A stretch of 64,000 bases of DNA from Escherichia coli (lineage in GTDB: Bacteria > Pseudomonadota > Gammaproteobacteria > Enterobacterales > Enterobacteriaceae), in NCBI RefSeq assembly GCF_041886205.1, contig NZ_CP169029.1. One strand, given 5' to 3'. The position numbers were made by a program, and so were the translations under genes. The first letter of the stretch is position 1, and each line of letters opens with the position of its first letter. Below, piece after piece: positions 448 through 48,852 of the stretch. Below the pieces are notes generated by a model, which was given only the letters and a program-made list of their open reading frames with translations, made no database searches and was not told where the DNA came from.

Positions 448-1599
448 TTAATCAGCTTGCTTACGCAGGAATGCTGGGATATCCAGATAATCCGGCTCTT
501 TCGCAGTTTGCGGCGCATTGTCATTCACGACTTTAGCAACCGGCTTCTGCTCCTGGGTCAGCGGAGCCATCCCGTGCTGCTGGTAGCGATCCATCACTGG
601 CTGCTGAACCTGCTTATTGGTCACCAGAGTGATTTCAGGACGTTTGTCCATGCCGATACCTGTCGCAACAACGGTTACGCGCAGCTCGTCATTCATATCC
701 GGGTCAAGAGAAGTACCGATAACCACAGTCGCGTTGTCGGAAGCAAATGCACGGATGGTGTTACCTACCGTTTCGAACTCATCCAGACGCAGGTCGAAGC
801 CCGCCGTGATGTTAACCAGCACGCCGCGCGCGCCAGACAGGTCGATATCTTCCAGCAGCGGAGAAGAGATAGCCATTTCAGCAGCTTCTTCCGCACGGTC
901 TTCACCGCTCGCCACGCCAGAACCCATCATTGCGTAGCCCATTTCAGACATTACGGTGCGTACGTCTGCAAAGTCCACGTTCATCAAACCCGGACGAGTA
1001 ATCAGTTCGGCGATACCTTGCACAGCGCCTTTGAGTACATCGTTCGCTGCGCCAAACGCATCCAGCAGGGAGATACCGCGGCCCAGAACTTTCAGCAGTT
1101 TGTCGTTCGGGATAGTGATCAGAGAGTCCACATGCTTGGACAGTTCAGTGATCCCCTGCTCCGCGAATGCCATACGCTTCTTGCCTTCAAAGTTGAAGGG
1201 CTTAGTGACGACAGCAACGGTCAGGATACCCAAATCTTTTGCCACTTCAGCGACGACTGGTGCTGCACCTGTACCGGTACCACCACCCATACCCGCAGCA
1301 ATAAAGACCATGTCTGCACCTTCCAGCGCCGCACGCAGTGCATCGCGATCCTCATCAGCCGCATTGCGGCCAACTTCTGGATTAGCGCCAGCTCCCAGTC
1401 CTTTGGTGATACCGCTACCGATTTGAATCGTCTGTCCAACCGCTGTTTTACGCAGCGCTTGTGCATCGGTATTTACCGCGAAGAATTCAACACCTTCAAT
1501 GCGCTCGCGCACCATGTGTTCAACAGCATTACCGCCGCCGCCGCCGACGCCGATGACTTTAATCACCGCGTCATTGGTAAGTTCCATTGGTTCAAACAT
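448..1599 (-). CDS. ftsZ: Cell division GTPase FtsZ (383 aa)
   Basis: ORF track 383 aa; tubulin-like GGGTGTG signature; full-length match to E. coli FtsZ from memory. Confidence 0.97.
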
Positions 1600-1659
1600 A
1601 GTTTCTCTCCGATTTGTGCCTGTCGCCTGAGACCGTAATCATTGTCGGCCTCATAAAAA

Positions 1660-2922
1660 TTAAAACTCTTTTCGCAGCCAACTATTGAGTCGCTTGATCC
1701 ACGAGCCAACTGATGCTGTAACACGTTTTTCTACTTCAGCTTCACCGTTAAGATGTGACTCTTTCCCGTAATGAAGCAATCCCACCGCCGTCGAATAATA
1801 CGGCTCCTGAGCATAATCCGTTAAACCGGTAATGTTCAGTGGCGCGCCGATACGCACCTGCGTATGAAACACGCGCTGAGCACAGGCTGCAAGACCTTCA
1901 ATCTGCGCTGCGCCACCGGTTAATACAATGCCTGCCGCCAGGTGATGTTTAACCCCTTGTTGGCGAAGCTTTTCCTGCAACTGCAATATCTCTTCGTTGA
2001 CCAGGTTGAGCAGCTCGGTATAGCGCGGCTCGATCACCTCTGCCAGGGTCTGACGTTGCAGACTCCGCGGCGGACGACCGCCTACGCTCGGCACTTCCAC
2101 GCTCTCATCTTTTCCAACGATGGAACCCAGCGCACAACCGTGGCGAACTTTAATCGCTTCGGCGTCGCTTGGCGGCGTGCCAAAGGCGTAAGCGATATCA
2201 CTGGTCACGACATTGCCAGCATAAGGAATTACCTTAGTGTGGCGCAATGCCCCACCGGTATAAACGGCGATATCCATTGTACCACCACCGATATCGACGA
2301 CGCAGACACCCAGTTCACGTTCATCTTCCGTCAATACCGAATAACTTGATGCCAGACCGGCAAATATCAGTTGGTCAACTTTCAGCCCACAACGTTCAAC
2401 CGCTTTGACGATGTTTTTCGCCATATCGTTGTGGCATGTGATCAGGTGCACTTTTGCCTGCATCCGCACGCCCGAAAGTCCTACCGGATTCTTGATCCCT
2501 TCCTGATAGTCAATCGCATACTCTTGCGGGATCACATGCAGCACACGATGCTCATCGCGCACACGCACCGATTTCGCGGTATGGACGACGTTTTCCACAT
2601 CTTCTTGCGTTACTTCTTCTTCAGAAATAGGCACCATACCAATTTCATTCTGGCAGCTGATGTGCTTACCAGAAAGCGCCAGATATACCGAAGAGATCTG
2701 ACAATCTGCCATCAATTCTGCCTGGTCAATGGCGCGTTGTACGCACTTGACCACGGATTCGAGGTCGTTCACCCCGCCTTTATCCATACCACGCGACGGG
2801 CAGCTGCCCACGCCAATGATATTGACCATACCGTCGGGCAGAACTTCCCCTACTAAAGCGGCAACCTTCGCGGTACCAATCTCCAGTCCTACTACCAGTT
2901 TTCTGTCCGTCGCCTTGATCAT
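1660..2922 (-). CDS. ftsA: Cell division protein FtsA (actin-like ATPase, 420 aa)
   Basis: ORF track 420 aa, [20 protein letters not shown]...; conserved dcw order. Confidence 0.96.
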
Positions 2923-3749
2923 TGTTGTTCTGCCTGTGCCTGATTTTGTTGCTGAGTAGATTCCTCTGGCGGCAAGGGCGCCCAGCCTACTGCCGCTCCA
3001 GAGTCATAACGCAAATCAACGTAGCTAATCCGTTTGCCATCGGTTTGCGCCTGCTGCTGTAAAACCGGATAAAGTTCTACAAAGCGAGCCAAACGTTTCA
3101 TCGTATCGCCCCGGCCAAGATTGAGCTTAATATCGTTATTCAGCGTCAACTGCCAGGAACGCCGCGCGGTCATCGCCGCTTCCTTCAGAGTAAATCTGTC
3201 CTTTGCCAGCATCTGCCCCATTTCGCGATAGCCCTGCAACACTTCATTGGCGCTGCCTTCCGGGCCATACAGCATTGGAAGCACCTGCTTGCTGGTGCGA
3301 TCTGGCGGCACGCTAAAGGTGTTTCCTTCCGCGTCTACCATATGTTGATCATTCCACCGCGCAATCGGCACATATTCAACCAGATGAATCTTCAATTCAT
3401 CTGGCCACTGCTTTCTGACGCTCACCTGCTTAATCCACGGCAGGCGTTGTTCTATTTGCGTCTGGATGATGTTGACATCCTGGGTCATAAAGGTACCCGG
3501 CTCACCCAATGCCAGGATCGATTGCCGGATATCGTCATTACGCGTGTAATGGCGTTCACCGGTCAACACCAGCTTTGAGAGCGGCAGGCGTTGCGCATCT
3601 TCCATCCAGCCCAACACGACCCAGCCGCTCACCAACACTGTCGTTAAAACGGTCAGCAGGAAAAGGATCCCCGCCAGACGCGTTCCATTATTGCGGCGAG
3701 AAGAAACCTCTTCTTCGCTGTTTCGCGTGTTCAGAGCAGCCTGCGACAT
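2919..3749 (-). CDS. ftsQ: Cell division protein FtsQ (276 aa)
   Basis: ORF track 276 aa; 4-bp overlap with ftsA start; position in dcw cluster. Confidence 0.95.
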
Positions 3750-22536: not shown

Positions 22537-23194
22537 ACTTAACTCCACTGTCACACTTAACTCCCTTTCCCTTATTGGAATGCAGAGAAATAATCCTGAA
22601 GAATATGATTTATCATGCATATAAAATAAGAAAAAGGAAAATGAGTAAAATTAGGAAAACATAAAGATACGGGTTCTTATAAAAACAGAATCCATTGCCG
22701 TGGAAAGCGTCATTTACCACAGCATAATAATCCATAATGTTTTTGTTGCGAAAACAATCTAATCATAACTACCGCGAATACTCAATCATCTACAAAATGG
22801 ATTAAATGTGCTTATTTAATAATTAATTTATATATTTAATGCATTAATTCTTAACATTAATCGATCAATAATATTCACCATATCAATATCAAAAAACTCG
22901 CAAAACATATAATTCAATACAAATCATAAGGATAGGTTTTTCTACCTGTGCATTTTGTCCCCTTTTTCCTCGTTGATTAGATGCAAAAATTTATTCTGAA
23001 ATATGTCAACCTATGAAAAGCGTCGGTAGTTAAGCAGAAATTAATATCGCTTGTTTTAACCACAGCAGCACAATTAGCTAATTTTACGGATGCAGAACTC
23101 ACGCTGGCGGGACGTTTTTGTTACGTCAGGGTTGACATCCGTTTTTGTATCCAGTAACTCTAAAAGCATATCGCATTCATCTGGAGCTGATTTA
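22537..23194. promoter_or_regulatory. leuO–leuL divergent intergenic region (658 bp, strongly AT-rich; H-NS-silenced leuO promoter and leu promoter)
   Basis: Long AT-rich tracts (e.g. aattaatttatatatttaatgcattaattcttaacattaatcgatcaataatattc); matches the known leuO regulatory region. Confidence 0.65.
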
Positions 23195-23281
23195 ATGACT
23201 CACATCGTTCGCTTTATCGGTCTACTACTACTAAACGCATCTTCTTTGCGCGGTAGACGAGTGAGCGGCATCCAGCATTAA
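23195..23281 (+). CDS. leuL: leu operon leader peptide LeuL (28 aa; four consecutive Leu codons)
   Basis: [28 protein letters not shown]; GGAG Shine-Dalgarno before the ATG; the 63-aa track ORF is an upstream extension. Confidence 0.92.
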
Positions 23282-23302
23282 GCCAGCACGCAGTCAAACA
23301 AA

Positions 23303-23331
23303 AAACCCGCGCCATTGCGCGGGTTTTTTTA
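23303..23331 (+). terminator. leu attenuator (intrinsic terminator)
   Basis: cccgcgc-cattg-gcgcggg followed by T7 immediately after leuL and before leuA. Confidence 0.88.
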
Positions 23332-28103: not shown

Positions 28104-29282
28104 TCAAACGTCTTTAACCTTTGCGGTTAAAAATAATGAGACAACAGAAATAACCGCAATTACCCAGTAGACAGCAAAGTGCCCCCAACTTTGTGCAATT
28201 GCTCCCTGAATAACGCCAGCCAGAATTACCCCGGTAGAAATACTGTTGGTAAATAAGGTGGTAGCTGCCCCCGCTCTTCCAGGCATTAAATCCTGAAACC
28301 ATAGCATCCCAATACCCGCAACAATGCCGATAAATACAGCGTTAAAAAGTTGCAGCGTCATCAACGCCAGACGGCTATGAAAGAAAATCAATCCGGTGTA
28401 AAACAGCACACCTGCCGCCACTGCTATGACCATCATTCGCCGCTTACCATAACGTTTTACATAGTAGCCAGCCAGAATCATTGCTGGGATTTCCAGTCCA
28501 GCTGCCGTCCCCATCAGGAAACCCGCCAGTTTGTCTGGCAATCCTAACTCGCTACTGATCCACAACGGCATATCAATAATGTACATGGTGTTGCAGGTCC
28601 ACATTAACGTCGAGGCGACAAATAACATCCGTACGTTACTATCCTGCCAGCCACCTTGCATTGATAAAGCATTTTCCGACGGCAGTTCTACCCGCGCCAC
28701 AGACGGAAGCATAAATGCAATCAATACCAGACTGATTGTGAATATCCCGGCGGCAATCGAAAACATCACTGTAAAGCCGTAATTCAACGCCAGCATAAAG
28801 GCCAGCGGTGGACCGATAACCCATGCCAGAGAAAGCTGCGCACGCATCACCGAGCTAAACATCACCACTTCTCGCGCCGAGTTATCCGCGTATTCCCGCG
28901 CCAGAGCAAATAACTGTGGCATTGCCGTATTGGCCAGAGATGCCAGAAGTACACCACAGGTGATAAGCGTCAGATAATGACGATTAAATGCAAACAATAG
29001 CGCATTGCCGATAGCCATCAAACAGCAAAATATAATCAGTTTTCGCCGATCGCCCTGACTGTCAGAACGTTTTGCCAACCAGAGGCTTACGCCGATCCCA
29101 GCAATAGCATTCACCGTATAAAAGAGTCCGATCCAGAAAGGTTGCGCGCCAACCTCACGACTCAGAAATAAGCTCAAAGTAGGAGCCTGTAGCGCCCCGG
29201 CCACCCCCATCATAAAAGCGACCAGCATAAATGCCGCGTAAACACCGTTCATACGGCGAGCCATCGTCATTATCCAGATCAT
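28104..29282 (-). CDS. setA: Sugar efflux transporter SetA (MFS, 392 aa)
   Basis: ORF track 392 aa; 12-TM-like hydrophobic profile; lies downstream of sgrS as in K-12. Confidence 0.93.
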   Translation of the reverse strand: MIWIMTMARRMNGVYAAFMLVAFMMGVAGALQAPTLSLFLSREVGAQPFWIGLFYTVNAIAGIGVSLWLAKRSDSQGDRRKLIIFCCLMAIGNALLFAFNRHYLTLITCGVLLASLANTAMPQLFALAREYADNSAREVVMFSSVMRAQLSLAWVIGPPLAFMLALNYGFTVMFSIAAGIFTISLVLIAFMLPSVARVELPSENALSMQGGWQDSNVRMLFVASTLMWTCNTMYIIDMPLWISSELGLPDKLAGFLMGTAAGLEIPAMILAGYYVKRYGKRRMMVIAVAAGVLFYTGLIFFHSRLALMTLQLFNAVFIGIVAGIGMLWFQDLMPGRAGAATTLFTNSISTGVILAGVIQGAIAQSWGHFAVYWVIAVISVVSLFLTAKVKDV

Positions 29283-29309
29283 ACGTTCCCTTTTTAGCGC
29301 GGCGAGAAT

Positions 29310-29536
29310 AAAAAAAACCAGCAGGTATAATCTGCTGGCGGGTGATTTTACACCAATACTCAGTCACACATGATGCAGGCAAGTCAACTTTCAGAATTGC
29401 GGTCATCCCACTGCATCAGTTCTTCAAGCATGGTTAATCGTTGTGGGACGCTTAACCAACGCAACCAGCACAACTTCGCTGTCGCGGTAAAATAGTGCTG
29501 ATAAAACTGACGCATGGGGCACCTCCTTGCTTCATC
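29310..29536 (-). ncRNA. sgrS: Small RNA SgrS (glucose-phosphate stress sRNA, about 227 nt) with intrinsic terminator at its 3' end
   Basis: Minus-strand sequence GATGAAGCAAGG...GUGUGACUGAGUAUUGGUGU...CCAGCAGGUAUAAUCUGCUGG-U8 matches my recollection of SgrS, including the ptsG-pairing region and terminator. Confidence 0.9.
29384..29515 (-). CDS. sgrT: SgrT small protein (43 aa) encoded within SgrS
   Basis: MRQFYQHYFTATAKLCWLRWLSVPQRLTMLEELMQWDDRNSES; the 99-aa track ORF is an upstream extension into the promoter region. Confidence 0.85.
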   Translation of the reverse strand: MRQFYQHYFTATAKLCWLRWLSVPQRLTMLEELMQWDDRNSES

Positions 29537-29603
29537 GTTAGGAATTATTGACTTAATATAGGGAAAATAAAATTGCTGTCTTTTGCGCAGGAGTTCCCCT
29601 TTT
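29537..29603. promoter_or_regulatory. Divergent sgrS / sgrR promoter region (SgrR binding expected)
   Basis: 67-bp gap between the SgrS 5' end and the sgrR ATG; established divergent arrangement. Confidence 0.6.
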
Positions 29604-31262
29604 ATGCCATCTGCTCGTCTGCAACAACAGTTCATCCGCCTGTGGCAATGCTGCGAGGGTAAATCGCAGGACACAACGCTCAACGAACTGGCAGCGTTAT
29701 TGAGCTGCTCGCGTCGTCATATGCGTACCCTGCTCAACACCATGCAGGATCGCGGCTGGCTGACGTGGGAAGCGGAAGTCGGGCGCGGTAAACGCTCGCG
29801 TCTGACATTCCTCTATACCGGGCTGGCGCTTCAGCAACAGCGGGCGGAAGACCTGCTGGAGCAGGATCGTATCGACCAACTAGTGCAGTTGGTTGGCGAC
29901 AAAGCGACTGTGCGGCAAATGCTGGTTTCTCATCTGGGCCGCAGCTTCCGCCAGGGGCGGCACATCCTGCGCGTGCTCTACTATCGTCCGTTGCGTAATC
30001 TGCTACCTGGCAGCGCATTGCGCCGTTCCGAAACCCATATCGCCCGGCAAATCTTCAGTTCGCTAACGCGCATAAATGAGGAAAATGGGGAACTGGAAGC
30101 AGACATCGCCCACCACTGGCAGCAAATATCACCGCTTCACTGGCGTTTCTTTTTGCGTCCAGGAGTCCATTTTCATCATGGTCGTGAACTGGAAATGGAC
30201 GATGTGATCGCCTCTTTAAAACGGATCAATACGCTGCCGCTCTATTCGCATATTGCTGAAATTGTATCGCCGACGCCCTGGACGCTGGATATCCACCTCA
30301 CGCAGCCGGACCGCTGGTTGCCGTTACTGCTGGGACAAGTTCCGGCGATGATCCTGCCGCGCGAATGGGAAACCATCAGTAACTTTGCCAGCCATCCCAT
30401 CGGCACCGGTCCGTATGCAGTGATCCGCAACAGCACCAATCAACTGAAAATTCAGGCATTCGATGACTTCTTCGGTTACCGGGCATTAATCGACGAAGTT
30501 AACGTCTGGGTTCTGCCGGAAATTGCCGACGAGCCAGCCGGAGGTCTGATGCTAAAAGGGCCACAGGGCGAGGAAAAAGAGATTGAAAGCCGCCTGGAGG
30601 AAGGTTGCTACTATTTACTGTTCGACAGCCGCACCCATCGCGGGGCGAATCAGCAAGTCAGGGACTGGGTAAGCTATGTGCTTTCTCCAACTAATCTGGT
30701 CTATTTCGCTGAGGAACAGTACCAGCAACTGTGGTTCCCGGCTTATGGACTGCTCCCCCGTTGGCACCATGCCCGCACCATAAAGAGCGAAAAACCGGCT
30801 GGTCTGGAAAGCCTCACCCTGACCTTTTATCAGGATCACAGTGAGCATCGGGTGATTGCCGGGATCATGCAGCAGATTCTGGCAAGTCACCAGGTCACGC
30901 TGGAAATCAAAGAGATCAGCTACGATCAGTGGCATGAAGGAGAGATTGAGAGCGATATCTGGCTTAACAGCGCCAACTTTACGCTACCGCTGGATTTTTC
31001 GCTGTTCGCGCACCTGTGCGAGGTGCCGCTGCTCCAACACTGTATTCCGATCGACTGGCAAGCCGACGCCGCCCGCTGGCGCAATGGCGAAATGAATCTG
31101 GCGAACTGGTGCCAGCAACTGGTCGCCTGCAAAGCAATGGTGCCGCTCATCCATCACTGGCTGATCATTCAGGGGCAACGCAGTATGCGCGGCCTGCGTA
31201 TGAATACCCTCGGCTGGTTCGATTTTAAATCAGCGTGGTTTGCGCCGCCGGATCCTGAGTAG
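29604..31262 (+). CDS. sgrR: Transcriptional regulator SgrR (551 aa)
   Basis: Known start [44 protein letters not shown]... (7 codons into the track ORF); N-terminal HTH plus solute-binding-like domain. Confidence 0.94.
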
Positions 31263-31725
31263 CTGGCGCCTTTTTGCGGTCATGAGCGCGTTTTTTATAT
31301 TTTCTCTGTTTTATGCATCGTCTGATTAGCGTCGCAAATAAGATTATCTCGAATCGTGTGCGATTCATTGTCTGAAAAATAACGACTCCGCACTCTCTGA
31401 AAACAAGACAGAGTCTGGATTCGACTCCAGACACCAACTCAATTTTCTTTTGCAAGAATAAAAATACACGCTCATAATTTCAGTAACACGCTGGTGTTTC
31501 AGGCTAATCAGACGAGATTTTATCTTGCGTGGGTGTGGGGTGTTGATGTTAAGTGACAGGCATATGAAAATTAGCGCACCGGGTAGGATTCAGTATTTCT
31601 GCGCAATATTGTTTTATCTAAAAAAAATAAGTCAGTGTGTTTTTTACCTTATTTTATATATAGTGGTCAGTACCAACTTAAAAAAGAAAGGGCGTTCCTG
31701 CCCCTTCCCTATTTCTTATTCTGGC

Positions 31726-48744: not shown

Positions 48745-48852
48745 TCACGCTGGCGCAGTTCGGTAGGCGGATAAGGCGTTCACGCCGCATCCGGCAATTG
48801 TGCGCCGATTGCCTGATGCGACGCGGGCCGCGTCTTATCAGGCCTACAGTTT
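48745..48852. repeat. REP elements between rluA and djlA
   Basis: cggtaggcggataaggcgttcacgccgcatccggca ... gcctgatgcgacgcgggccgcgtcttatcaggcctac. Confidence 0.85.

Follow-up and report, generated by a model that had tools for sequence, protein, structure and literature searches.

The minus-strand interval 29310..29536 of a 64,000-nucleotide stretch of Escherichia coli DNA, hereafter referred to as the window, is almost certainly the E. coli sgrS gene, with a presumed K-12-like dual action, the common A13 allele in the start region of its embedded sgrT gene, and an artefactual 99-amino-acid (aa) open reading frame (ORF) overlying it. SgrS/SgrT is a textbook dual-function small RNA, and its occurrence at the sgrR–setA locus is already known and has been thoroughly characterised.

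Identity and architecture of the sgrS RNA

The original prediction placed SgrS on the minus strand from sequence inspection, and proposed an Rfam scan and an alignment to K-12 sgrS as checks. We carried out both. The Rfam family RF00534 (SgrS) covered 29310..29536 (-) completely, from position 1 to position 232 of the 232-position model, with a score of 232.9 bits (gathering score 37 bits; E = 2.7e-66), and scanning the whole 64-kb window with Rfam returned the same match. Alignment to the K-12 MG1655 gene b4577 showed that the two genes are both 227 nt in length and identical at 225 of 227 positions. The SgrS assignment thus held at exactly the coordinates that had been proposed. The 5' end of the RNA at 29536, whose position we carried over from the K-12 b4577 annotation, reads GATGAAGCAAGG on the minus strand, and a hairpin with a run of eight U residues after it forms the 3' end. 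Horler and Vanderpool (2009; PMC2760817) recognised SgrS by a divergent sgrR with a conserved promoter region, an SgrT ORF, complementarity to ptsG, and a terminator with a U tail, and every one of these sequence characters was found at 29310..29536 (-).

Within this 227-nt dual-function small RNA, the single-stranded base-pairing region spans sgrS nt 157-187 (29350..29380, -) and is identical to that of K-12. It contains the pairing core C174-U181, CUGAGUAU (29356-29363, -), the numbering of which agrees with that used previously (PMC3089445). A small stem-loop upstream of the terminator, the role of which has been described (PMC4021124), occupies nt 183-196 (29341..29354, -) and appears in both the minimum free energy and centroid folds. 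It is followed by a Rho-independent terminator (29310..29339, -) with an 8-bp GC-rich stem, a 7-nt loop and a U8 tail, which was recovered by a terminator scan, by folding, and by identity to K-12. The terminator folds with an energy of -13.2 kcal/mol (z = -5.7), and none of 200 shuffled sequences was as stable. The full-length SgrS fold has an energy of -78.8 kcal/mol (z = -4.9 relative to shuffled controls), and in this structure sgrT folds into a long helix, nt ~168-182 remain open, and the stem-loop at nt 183-196 precedes the terminator. No base differs from K-12 in the pairing core, in the Hfq/terminator module, or in the spacer between sgrS and setA.

The RefSeq records of strains E2865, EC958, and wlxctx60 annotate the sgrT coding sequence and a thiamine pyrophosphate (TPP) riboswitch but lack an sgrS ncRNA feature, which is present in the K-12 record. 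As this feature is absent from all three of the non-K-12 RefSeq records that we inspected, the RNA is easily missed.

Complementarity to ptsG and manX

Comparison of the pairing region with the ptsG and manX mRNAs of this strain had also been suggested. The expected duplexes were recovered, with the strain's own ptsG and manX, which lie outside the window, represented by the nearest genome and by species-wide conservation. The nearest complete genome is that of wlxctx60, which is 99.9% identical over 24 kb and whose ptsG region from -110 to +40 is 100% identical to that of K-12. Across the species, identity reaches at least 99% in 5379 of 5424 genomes for this ptsG region and in 5392 of 5423 for the manX region from -40 to +120.

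The SgrS core CUGAGUAU (nt 174-181) and ptsG positions -22 to -15 are exact reverse complements of each other. Pairing of C174-U181 with ptsG, including G176 and G178, has been demonstrated by genetics and footprinting (PMC3089445). Using short windows around the published ptsG and manX sites, we calculated a local SgrS-ptsG duplex of -27.8 kcal/mol, which was equalled by none of 1000 shuffled targets, and an SgrS-manX duplex over the published coding-region site of -29.6 kcal/mol, which was equalled in six of 1000 shuffles. Longer inputs, namely all of SgrS or 46 nt of it against targets of 150-320 nt, produced extended, loop-ridden pairings that were not better than shuffles: a score of -64.6 was obtained with ptsG against a shuffle mean of -69.8, and equally good pairings arose in 11/500, 59/500, and 109/500 shuffles.

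sgrT and its translation-initiation region

A 43-aa SgrT had been predicted within SgrS, and both a family match and the RefSeq annotation of identical DNA bear this out. The sgrT coding sequence, comprising 43 codons and a stop codon, occupies sgrS nt 22-153 (29384..29515, -), with its ATG at 29515..29513 and both start codon and frame intact. Its translation, MRQFYQHYFTATAKLCWLRWLSVPQRLTMLEELMQWDDRNSES, scored 50.5 bits against Pfam PF15894 (cut-off 27) and matched none of the NCBIfam models, and the protein annotated in RefSeq on the same sequence is WP_001248767.1, a 43-aa 'glucose uptake inhibitor SgrT'. SgrT of the window is identical to K-12 SgrT at 42 of 43 residues, the exception being E32, which is G32 in K-12 owing to an A rather than a G at sgrS nt 116.

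The region where sgrT translation initiates, AGGAGGUGCCCC, was delimited by K-12 alignment and folding to sgrS nt 10-21 (29516..29527, -). In K-12, a GGGGGUGCCCC hairpin ahead of the sgrT AUG has been shown genetically to repress sgrT translation, and mutants in which this hairpin is opened have raised SgrT levels and blocked glucose uptake (Wadler and Vanderpool, PMC2760806). The hairpin was present in only three of the 15 strains compared by Horler and Vanderpool, who also described start-codon mutants of sgrT in O157:H7 (PMC2760817). The window carries A13 where K-12 has G13, and this substitution abolishes the GGGGGUGCCCC hairpin and yields an AGGAGG Shine-Dalgarno sequence five nt from the AUG, with the energy of the local hairpin at the sgrT start being -0.4 kcal/mol compared to -6.0 kcal/mol in K-12. 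Partition-function calculations gave an openness for nt 10-24 of 0.61 for A13 versus 0.35 for K-12 in nascent contexts of 40-60 nt. In the full-length equilibrium ensemble the values did not differ (0.29 for A13 versus 0.27 for K-12) because the long sgrT helix buries the start codon in both alleles. As A13 removes the repressing hairpin, SgrT output from this allele is expected to be higher than in K-12, an expectation founded on the published mutagenesis and not on folding.

A 99-aa ORF overlying sgrT

The ORF list of the window includes a mechanically derived 99-aa ORF (29384..29683, -), composed of sgrT and a 56-codon upstream extension, that is not a gene. This ORF starts with a TTG codon and shares its frame and stop codon with sgrT, and its extension spans sgrS nt 1-21, the 67-nt intergenic region, and, in the antisense direction, 80 nt of coding sequence in sgrR. 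Its TTG codon, at 29683, lies 147 nt upstream of the K-12-annotated 5' end of sgrS. Codons 1-27 are the antisense of codons 1-27 of sgrR with coinciding third codon positions, a register that is a classic shadow frame. In strain EC958 (ST131), a TCG to TCT change that is synonymous in sgrR places a TGA codon in the 99-aa frame, and the only K-12 differences within the extension, R33C and R54G, are both non-synonymous in that frame. Searches of Pfam and NCBIfam identified no family covering the extension, and inspection of the sequence before the TTG codon revealed no Shine-Dalgarno-like purine run.

Given that its start lies outside the sgrS transcript, that it runs as a shadow frame of sgrR, that it is interrupted by a stop codon in EC958, and that no family covers its extension, the 99-aa ORF is an artefact. 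The original prediction had described it in these terms, as a merger of sgrT with an extension through the promoter into the 5' region of sgrR, and the start codon 147 nt upstream and the EC958 TGA codon both agree with that description. It had further warned that the ORF would mislead annotation, which has already happened: the exact 99-aa sequence has been deposited once, as the 'conserved hypothetical protein' CAQ96960.1 of E. coli IAI1, and variants of 65-95 aa have been deposited in other records. At least 1000 contigs show the 43-aa form, compared to a single one for the 99-aa form. Six-frame ORF tracks therefore over-extend sgrT, and a spurious protein, along with its shorter variants, stands in public records.

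The divergent activator gene sgrR and the sgrS promoter

The divergent neighbour of sgrS is sgrR (29604..31262, +), which encodes the 552-aa transcriptional activator of sgrS. It was identified by the Pfam domains SgrR_N and SBP_bac_5 and by the NCBIfam equivalog NF010149, against which SgrR scored 1125.6 bits (cut-off 476). The 67-nt intergenic region between the two genes (29537..29603, -) differs from that of K-12 at a single position, -51, which is C here and T in K-12, and from this near-identity it is predicted to hold the SgrR-dependent sgrS promoter at the K-12 position. A consensus promoter scan did not recover the SgrR-dependent sgrS promoter. The only minus-strand match that the scan returned in the promoter region, AAGACA-16-TATATT (29582..29555), would put the start of transcription ~12 nt ahead of the annotated 5' end, and we rejected it as mis-registered. 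A better-placed candidate -10 element, AATAAT, is located at -13 to -8 of sgrS and has no recognisable -35 element accompanying it, an arrangement that fits an activator-dependent promoter.

The sgrS–setA junction

The gene downstream of sgrS on the same strand is setA (28104..29282, -), which encodes a sugar efflux transporter of 392 aa and is the predicted distal gene of an sgrS–setA operon. SetA was identified by Pfam MFS_1 and by TIGR00899, with a score of 600.1 bits against a cut-off of 522.3. The U-tract of sgrS and the ATG of setA are separated by a 27-nt spacer (29283..29309, -), read directly from the sequence, which contains the setA ribosome-binding site and is identical to that of K-12. 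In K-12, setA is activated by SgrR (PMC4021124), and the sgrS–setA operon gives rise to read-through transcripts seen with both sgrS and setA probes (PMC4509938). On plasmids, approximately half of the transcripts pass the sgrS terminator, and stress enhances termination (PMC4509938). The sgrS–setA arrangement is confirmed in the window. Read-through into setA, which is documented for K-12 (PMC4509938), would by analogy also take place in this strain. The proposal that sgrS lies directly upstream of setA on the same strand, consistent with read-through, accordingly finds support in the published operon and in a terminator and 27-nt spacer identical to those of K-12.

Alternative interpretations of the locus

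It is conceivable that SgrS of the window acts as a riboregulator only, with an sgrT that is present but effectively untranslated, nearly as in K-12, whose SgrS makes little SgrT (PMC2760806). Folding of the full-length RNA at equilibrium leaves the AUG largely paired in both alleles, with an unpaired probability of 0.07 here and 0.10 in K-12, and the Rfam consensus pairs the sgrT start region with the sgrT end. However, the repressing GGGGGUGCCCC hairpin of K-12 is absent from this allele, in which A13 takes the local structure from -6.0 to -0.4 kcal/mol and creates AGGAGG, and opening of that same hairpin by mutation led to more SgrT and blocked glucose uptake (PMC2760806). As the start codon and 43-codon frame are also intact, unlike those of the O157:H7 start-codon mutants (PMC2760817), we consider a purely riboregulatory SgrS unlikely. 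At the opposite extreme, the 99-aa ORF could be a real gene whose product is SgrT with an N-terminal extension, made from a longer transcript originating within sgrR. Its frame does run without a stop through the 56 codons that precede the sgrT ATG, an occurrence with an estimated random chance of ~7%, (61/64)^56, and both the exact IAI1 deposit (CAQ96960.1) and the 65-95-aa variants are on record. Set against this, the TTG codon precedes the annotated 5' end of sgrS by 147 nt, with a promoter that equals that of K-12 except at -51 and no Shine-Dalgarno-like run ahead of the codon. Codons 1-27 are a wobble-aligned antisense shadow of sgrR, an sgrR-synonymous change puts a TGA codon in the frame in EC958, and the only differences from K-12 in the extension, R33C and R54G, are non-synonymous. 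No NCBIfam model matched the whole 99-aa ORF, and for identical DNA the RefSeq annotation pipeline PGAP annotates the 43-aa protein. The 43-aa form also outnumbers the 99-aa form, by at least 1000 contigs to one. A genuine 99-aa protein is thus extremely improbable, and the 43-aa SgrT remains the product that we assign to this frame.

The adjacency of sgrS and setA could likewise be mere synteny, with setA driven by its own promoter and not by read-through from sgrS. Judged by its calculated energy and U tract (-13.2 kcal/mol, U8), the sgrS terminator should be strong, and termination there is enhanced under stress (PMC4509938), as would suit such an arrangement. The 27-nt gap downstream of the terminator nevertheless contains the ribosome-binding site and is too short to accommodate a promoter as well, and the promoter scan found none on the minus strand between 29536 and 29282. 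In K-12, whose sequence from the terminator to the setA ATG is identical, read-through was detected with both probes and setA is SgrR-activated (PMC4509938, PMC4021124). The genomes with setA also equal in number those with a K-12-like sgrS 3' half, at 3240 each of 5426. An independently transcribed setA is therefore very unlikely, and we favour an sgrS–setA operon.

Proposed action of SgrS and SgrT

By analogy with experiments in K-12, SgrR would activate the sgrS promoter under glucose-phosphate stress. The 3' region of the resulting RNA, displayed by the Hfq-binding stem-loop and U8 terminator module, would pair with ptsG at its ribosome-binding site and also with manX at about codons 4-11, and this pairing would block translation of the sugar transporters. 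The 5' half would be translated into the 43-aa SgrT, a presumed inhibitor of PtsG transport activity. Polymerases that pass the sgrS terminator would continue across 27 nt into setA, making sgrS and setA an operon. We propose a K-12-like function for SgrS of the window because its sequence is identical to the characterised K-12 elements, and it is from this identity together with the literature that we infer stress induction via SgrR, dependence on Hfq, repression of ptsG and manXYZ, and inhibition of PtsG by SgrT.

Distribution of sgrS alleles amongst E. coli genomes

We next considered 5426 complete E. coli genomes, in which the alleles at nt 13 were counted by exact 31-mers. The A13 31-mer found in the window was present in 3508 of the 5426 genomes and the K-12 G13 31-mer in 1426, with the remaining genomes having other sequence at this site. 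These remaining genomes may include O157:H7 start-codon mutants of the kind described previously (PMC2760817). An sgrS gene was found in 5399 of the 5426 genomes, comprising 3240 in which it is at least 95% identical to that of the window and 2159 in which identity is at or below 95%, mostly ~89%. We found setA in 3240 genomes and no setA match in 2186. That the setA total equals that of the K-12-like sgrS class suggests that the 3' half of sgrS and setA are completely linked.

A three-way alignment with EC958 showed that the window and EC958 share their bases at -51, nt 13, and nt 116, which marks the K-12 state as derived at each of these sites. Whether K-12 is an outlier, with the A13, AGGAGG-containing, hairpin-free allele being the norm for the species, we judge to be about evenly balanced. 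If this is correct, then SgrT would reach physiologically relevant levels in most E. coli, and a picture drawn from K-12, with base pairing as the dominant part of the stress response, would understate the peptide arm of the system. Any extrapolation of SgrT expression from K-12 starts from a repressing hairpin that is a minority, derived state. The survey of 15 strains by Horler and Vanderpool (PMC2760817) had already hinted that the hairpin-free form is the norm, and what is added to that hint here is only the scale of the count and its polarity, namely that the K-12 states are derived.

Other features of the window

Downstream of sgrR, an insertion of ~1.5 kb in the window (~31256-32784) separates the stop codon of that gene from the TPP riboswitch of thiB, two features that are only 35 nt apart in K-12. 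The GC content of the insertion is 0.40-0.44 compared to 0.52-0.58 in its flanks, its junctions carry an imperfect 11-bp direct repeat (TGAGTAGCTGG / TGGATTGCTGG), and through it the C-terminus of SgrR changes from ...PPDP* to ...PPDPE*. At least 80% of the insertion segment is covered in only 207 of the 5426 complete genomes. The insertion carries an ORF of 283 aa (31726..32577, -) with pentapeptide repeats (Pfam PF00805, 97.5 bits). The N-terminal ~150 aa of this ORF had no family match, and models of PipB, PipB2, and Qnr scored far below their cut-offs and aligned to the repeat region only. Inside the pentapeptide gene, a 15-bp tandem array of 5.1 copies (31874-31949) encodes repeats of the motif DMSDI. 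Over the corresponding segment, the closest genomes measure 1736 bp against 1751 bp here, and the missing 15 bp would correspond to one repeat unit of this array. RefSeq splits the gene at the array into a 'partial' pseudogene and a 97-aa coding sequence, although the frame appears continuous.

Along with sgrS, several other structured RNAs were identified in the window. The TPP riboswitch upstream of thiB (32819-32918, +; RF00059, 65.8 bits) corresponds to the sroA region of K-12, and the leucine operon leader (RF00512, 145.8 bits) is located upstream of leuA at 23181-23330 (+). PssrA, the 'plasmid-encoded Shigella sRNA A' (RF02797), matched in full length at 1591-1680 (-) with 104.9 bits against a cut-off of 69. 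This match lies in an apparently chromosomal context and may be part of a mobile element. The naRNA4 family (RF02564) matched at 41754-41819 (+) and 48765-48844 (+), with 60.2 and 75.8 bits, respectively.

Comparison with known sgrS loci

The K-12 MG1655 locus (b4577/b4662) shares with the window its pairing region, Hfq module, terminator, spacer, and gene order, the K-12 order of thiQPB, sroA, sgrR, sgrS/sgrT, setA, and leuD being preserved in the window in reverse orientation. Within the 321-nt interval between sgrR and setA, the two sequences differ at three bases, located at -51, nt 13, and nt 116, and they are identical from sgrS nt 117 to the setA ATG. Amongst the flanking proteins, SetA of the window differs from K-12 SetA at four residues, and SgrR has one extra C-terminal residue, which arises from the 1.5-kb insertion abutting its stop codon.

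EC958 represents the B2/CFT073-type sgrS, which has in common with the window the divergent arrangement with sgrR, the invariant pairing core CATCATGTGTGACTGAGTATTGGTGT, and an sgrT annotated as 43 aa. The first 125 nt of its sgrS are identical to those of the window, including A13 and A116. Overall identity is nonetheless ~89.5%, with all of the divergence beginning abruptly after nt 125 and sparing the pairing core. The C-terminus of SgrT reads EGSHSDY in EC958 and DDRNSES in the window, and the EC958 terminator also differs in sequence. EC958 lacks setA, and its sgrS abuts leuD. Salmonella Typhimurium SgrS, the diverged homologue of another species, resembles the window allele, going by its published description, in being a dual-function RNA without the K-12 5' hairpin, and the SgrT that it yields suffices to rescue growth when base pairing is lacking (PMC2760806).
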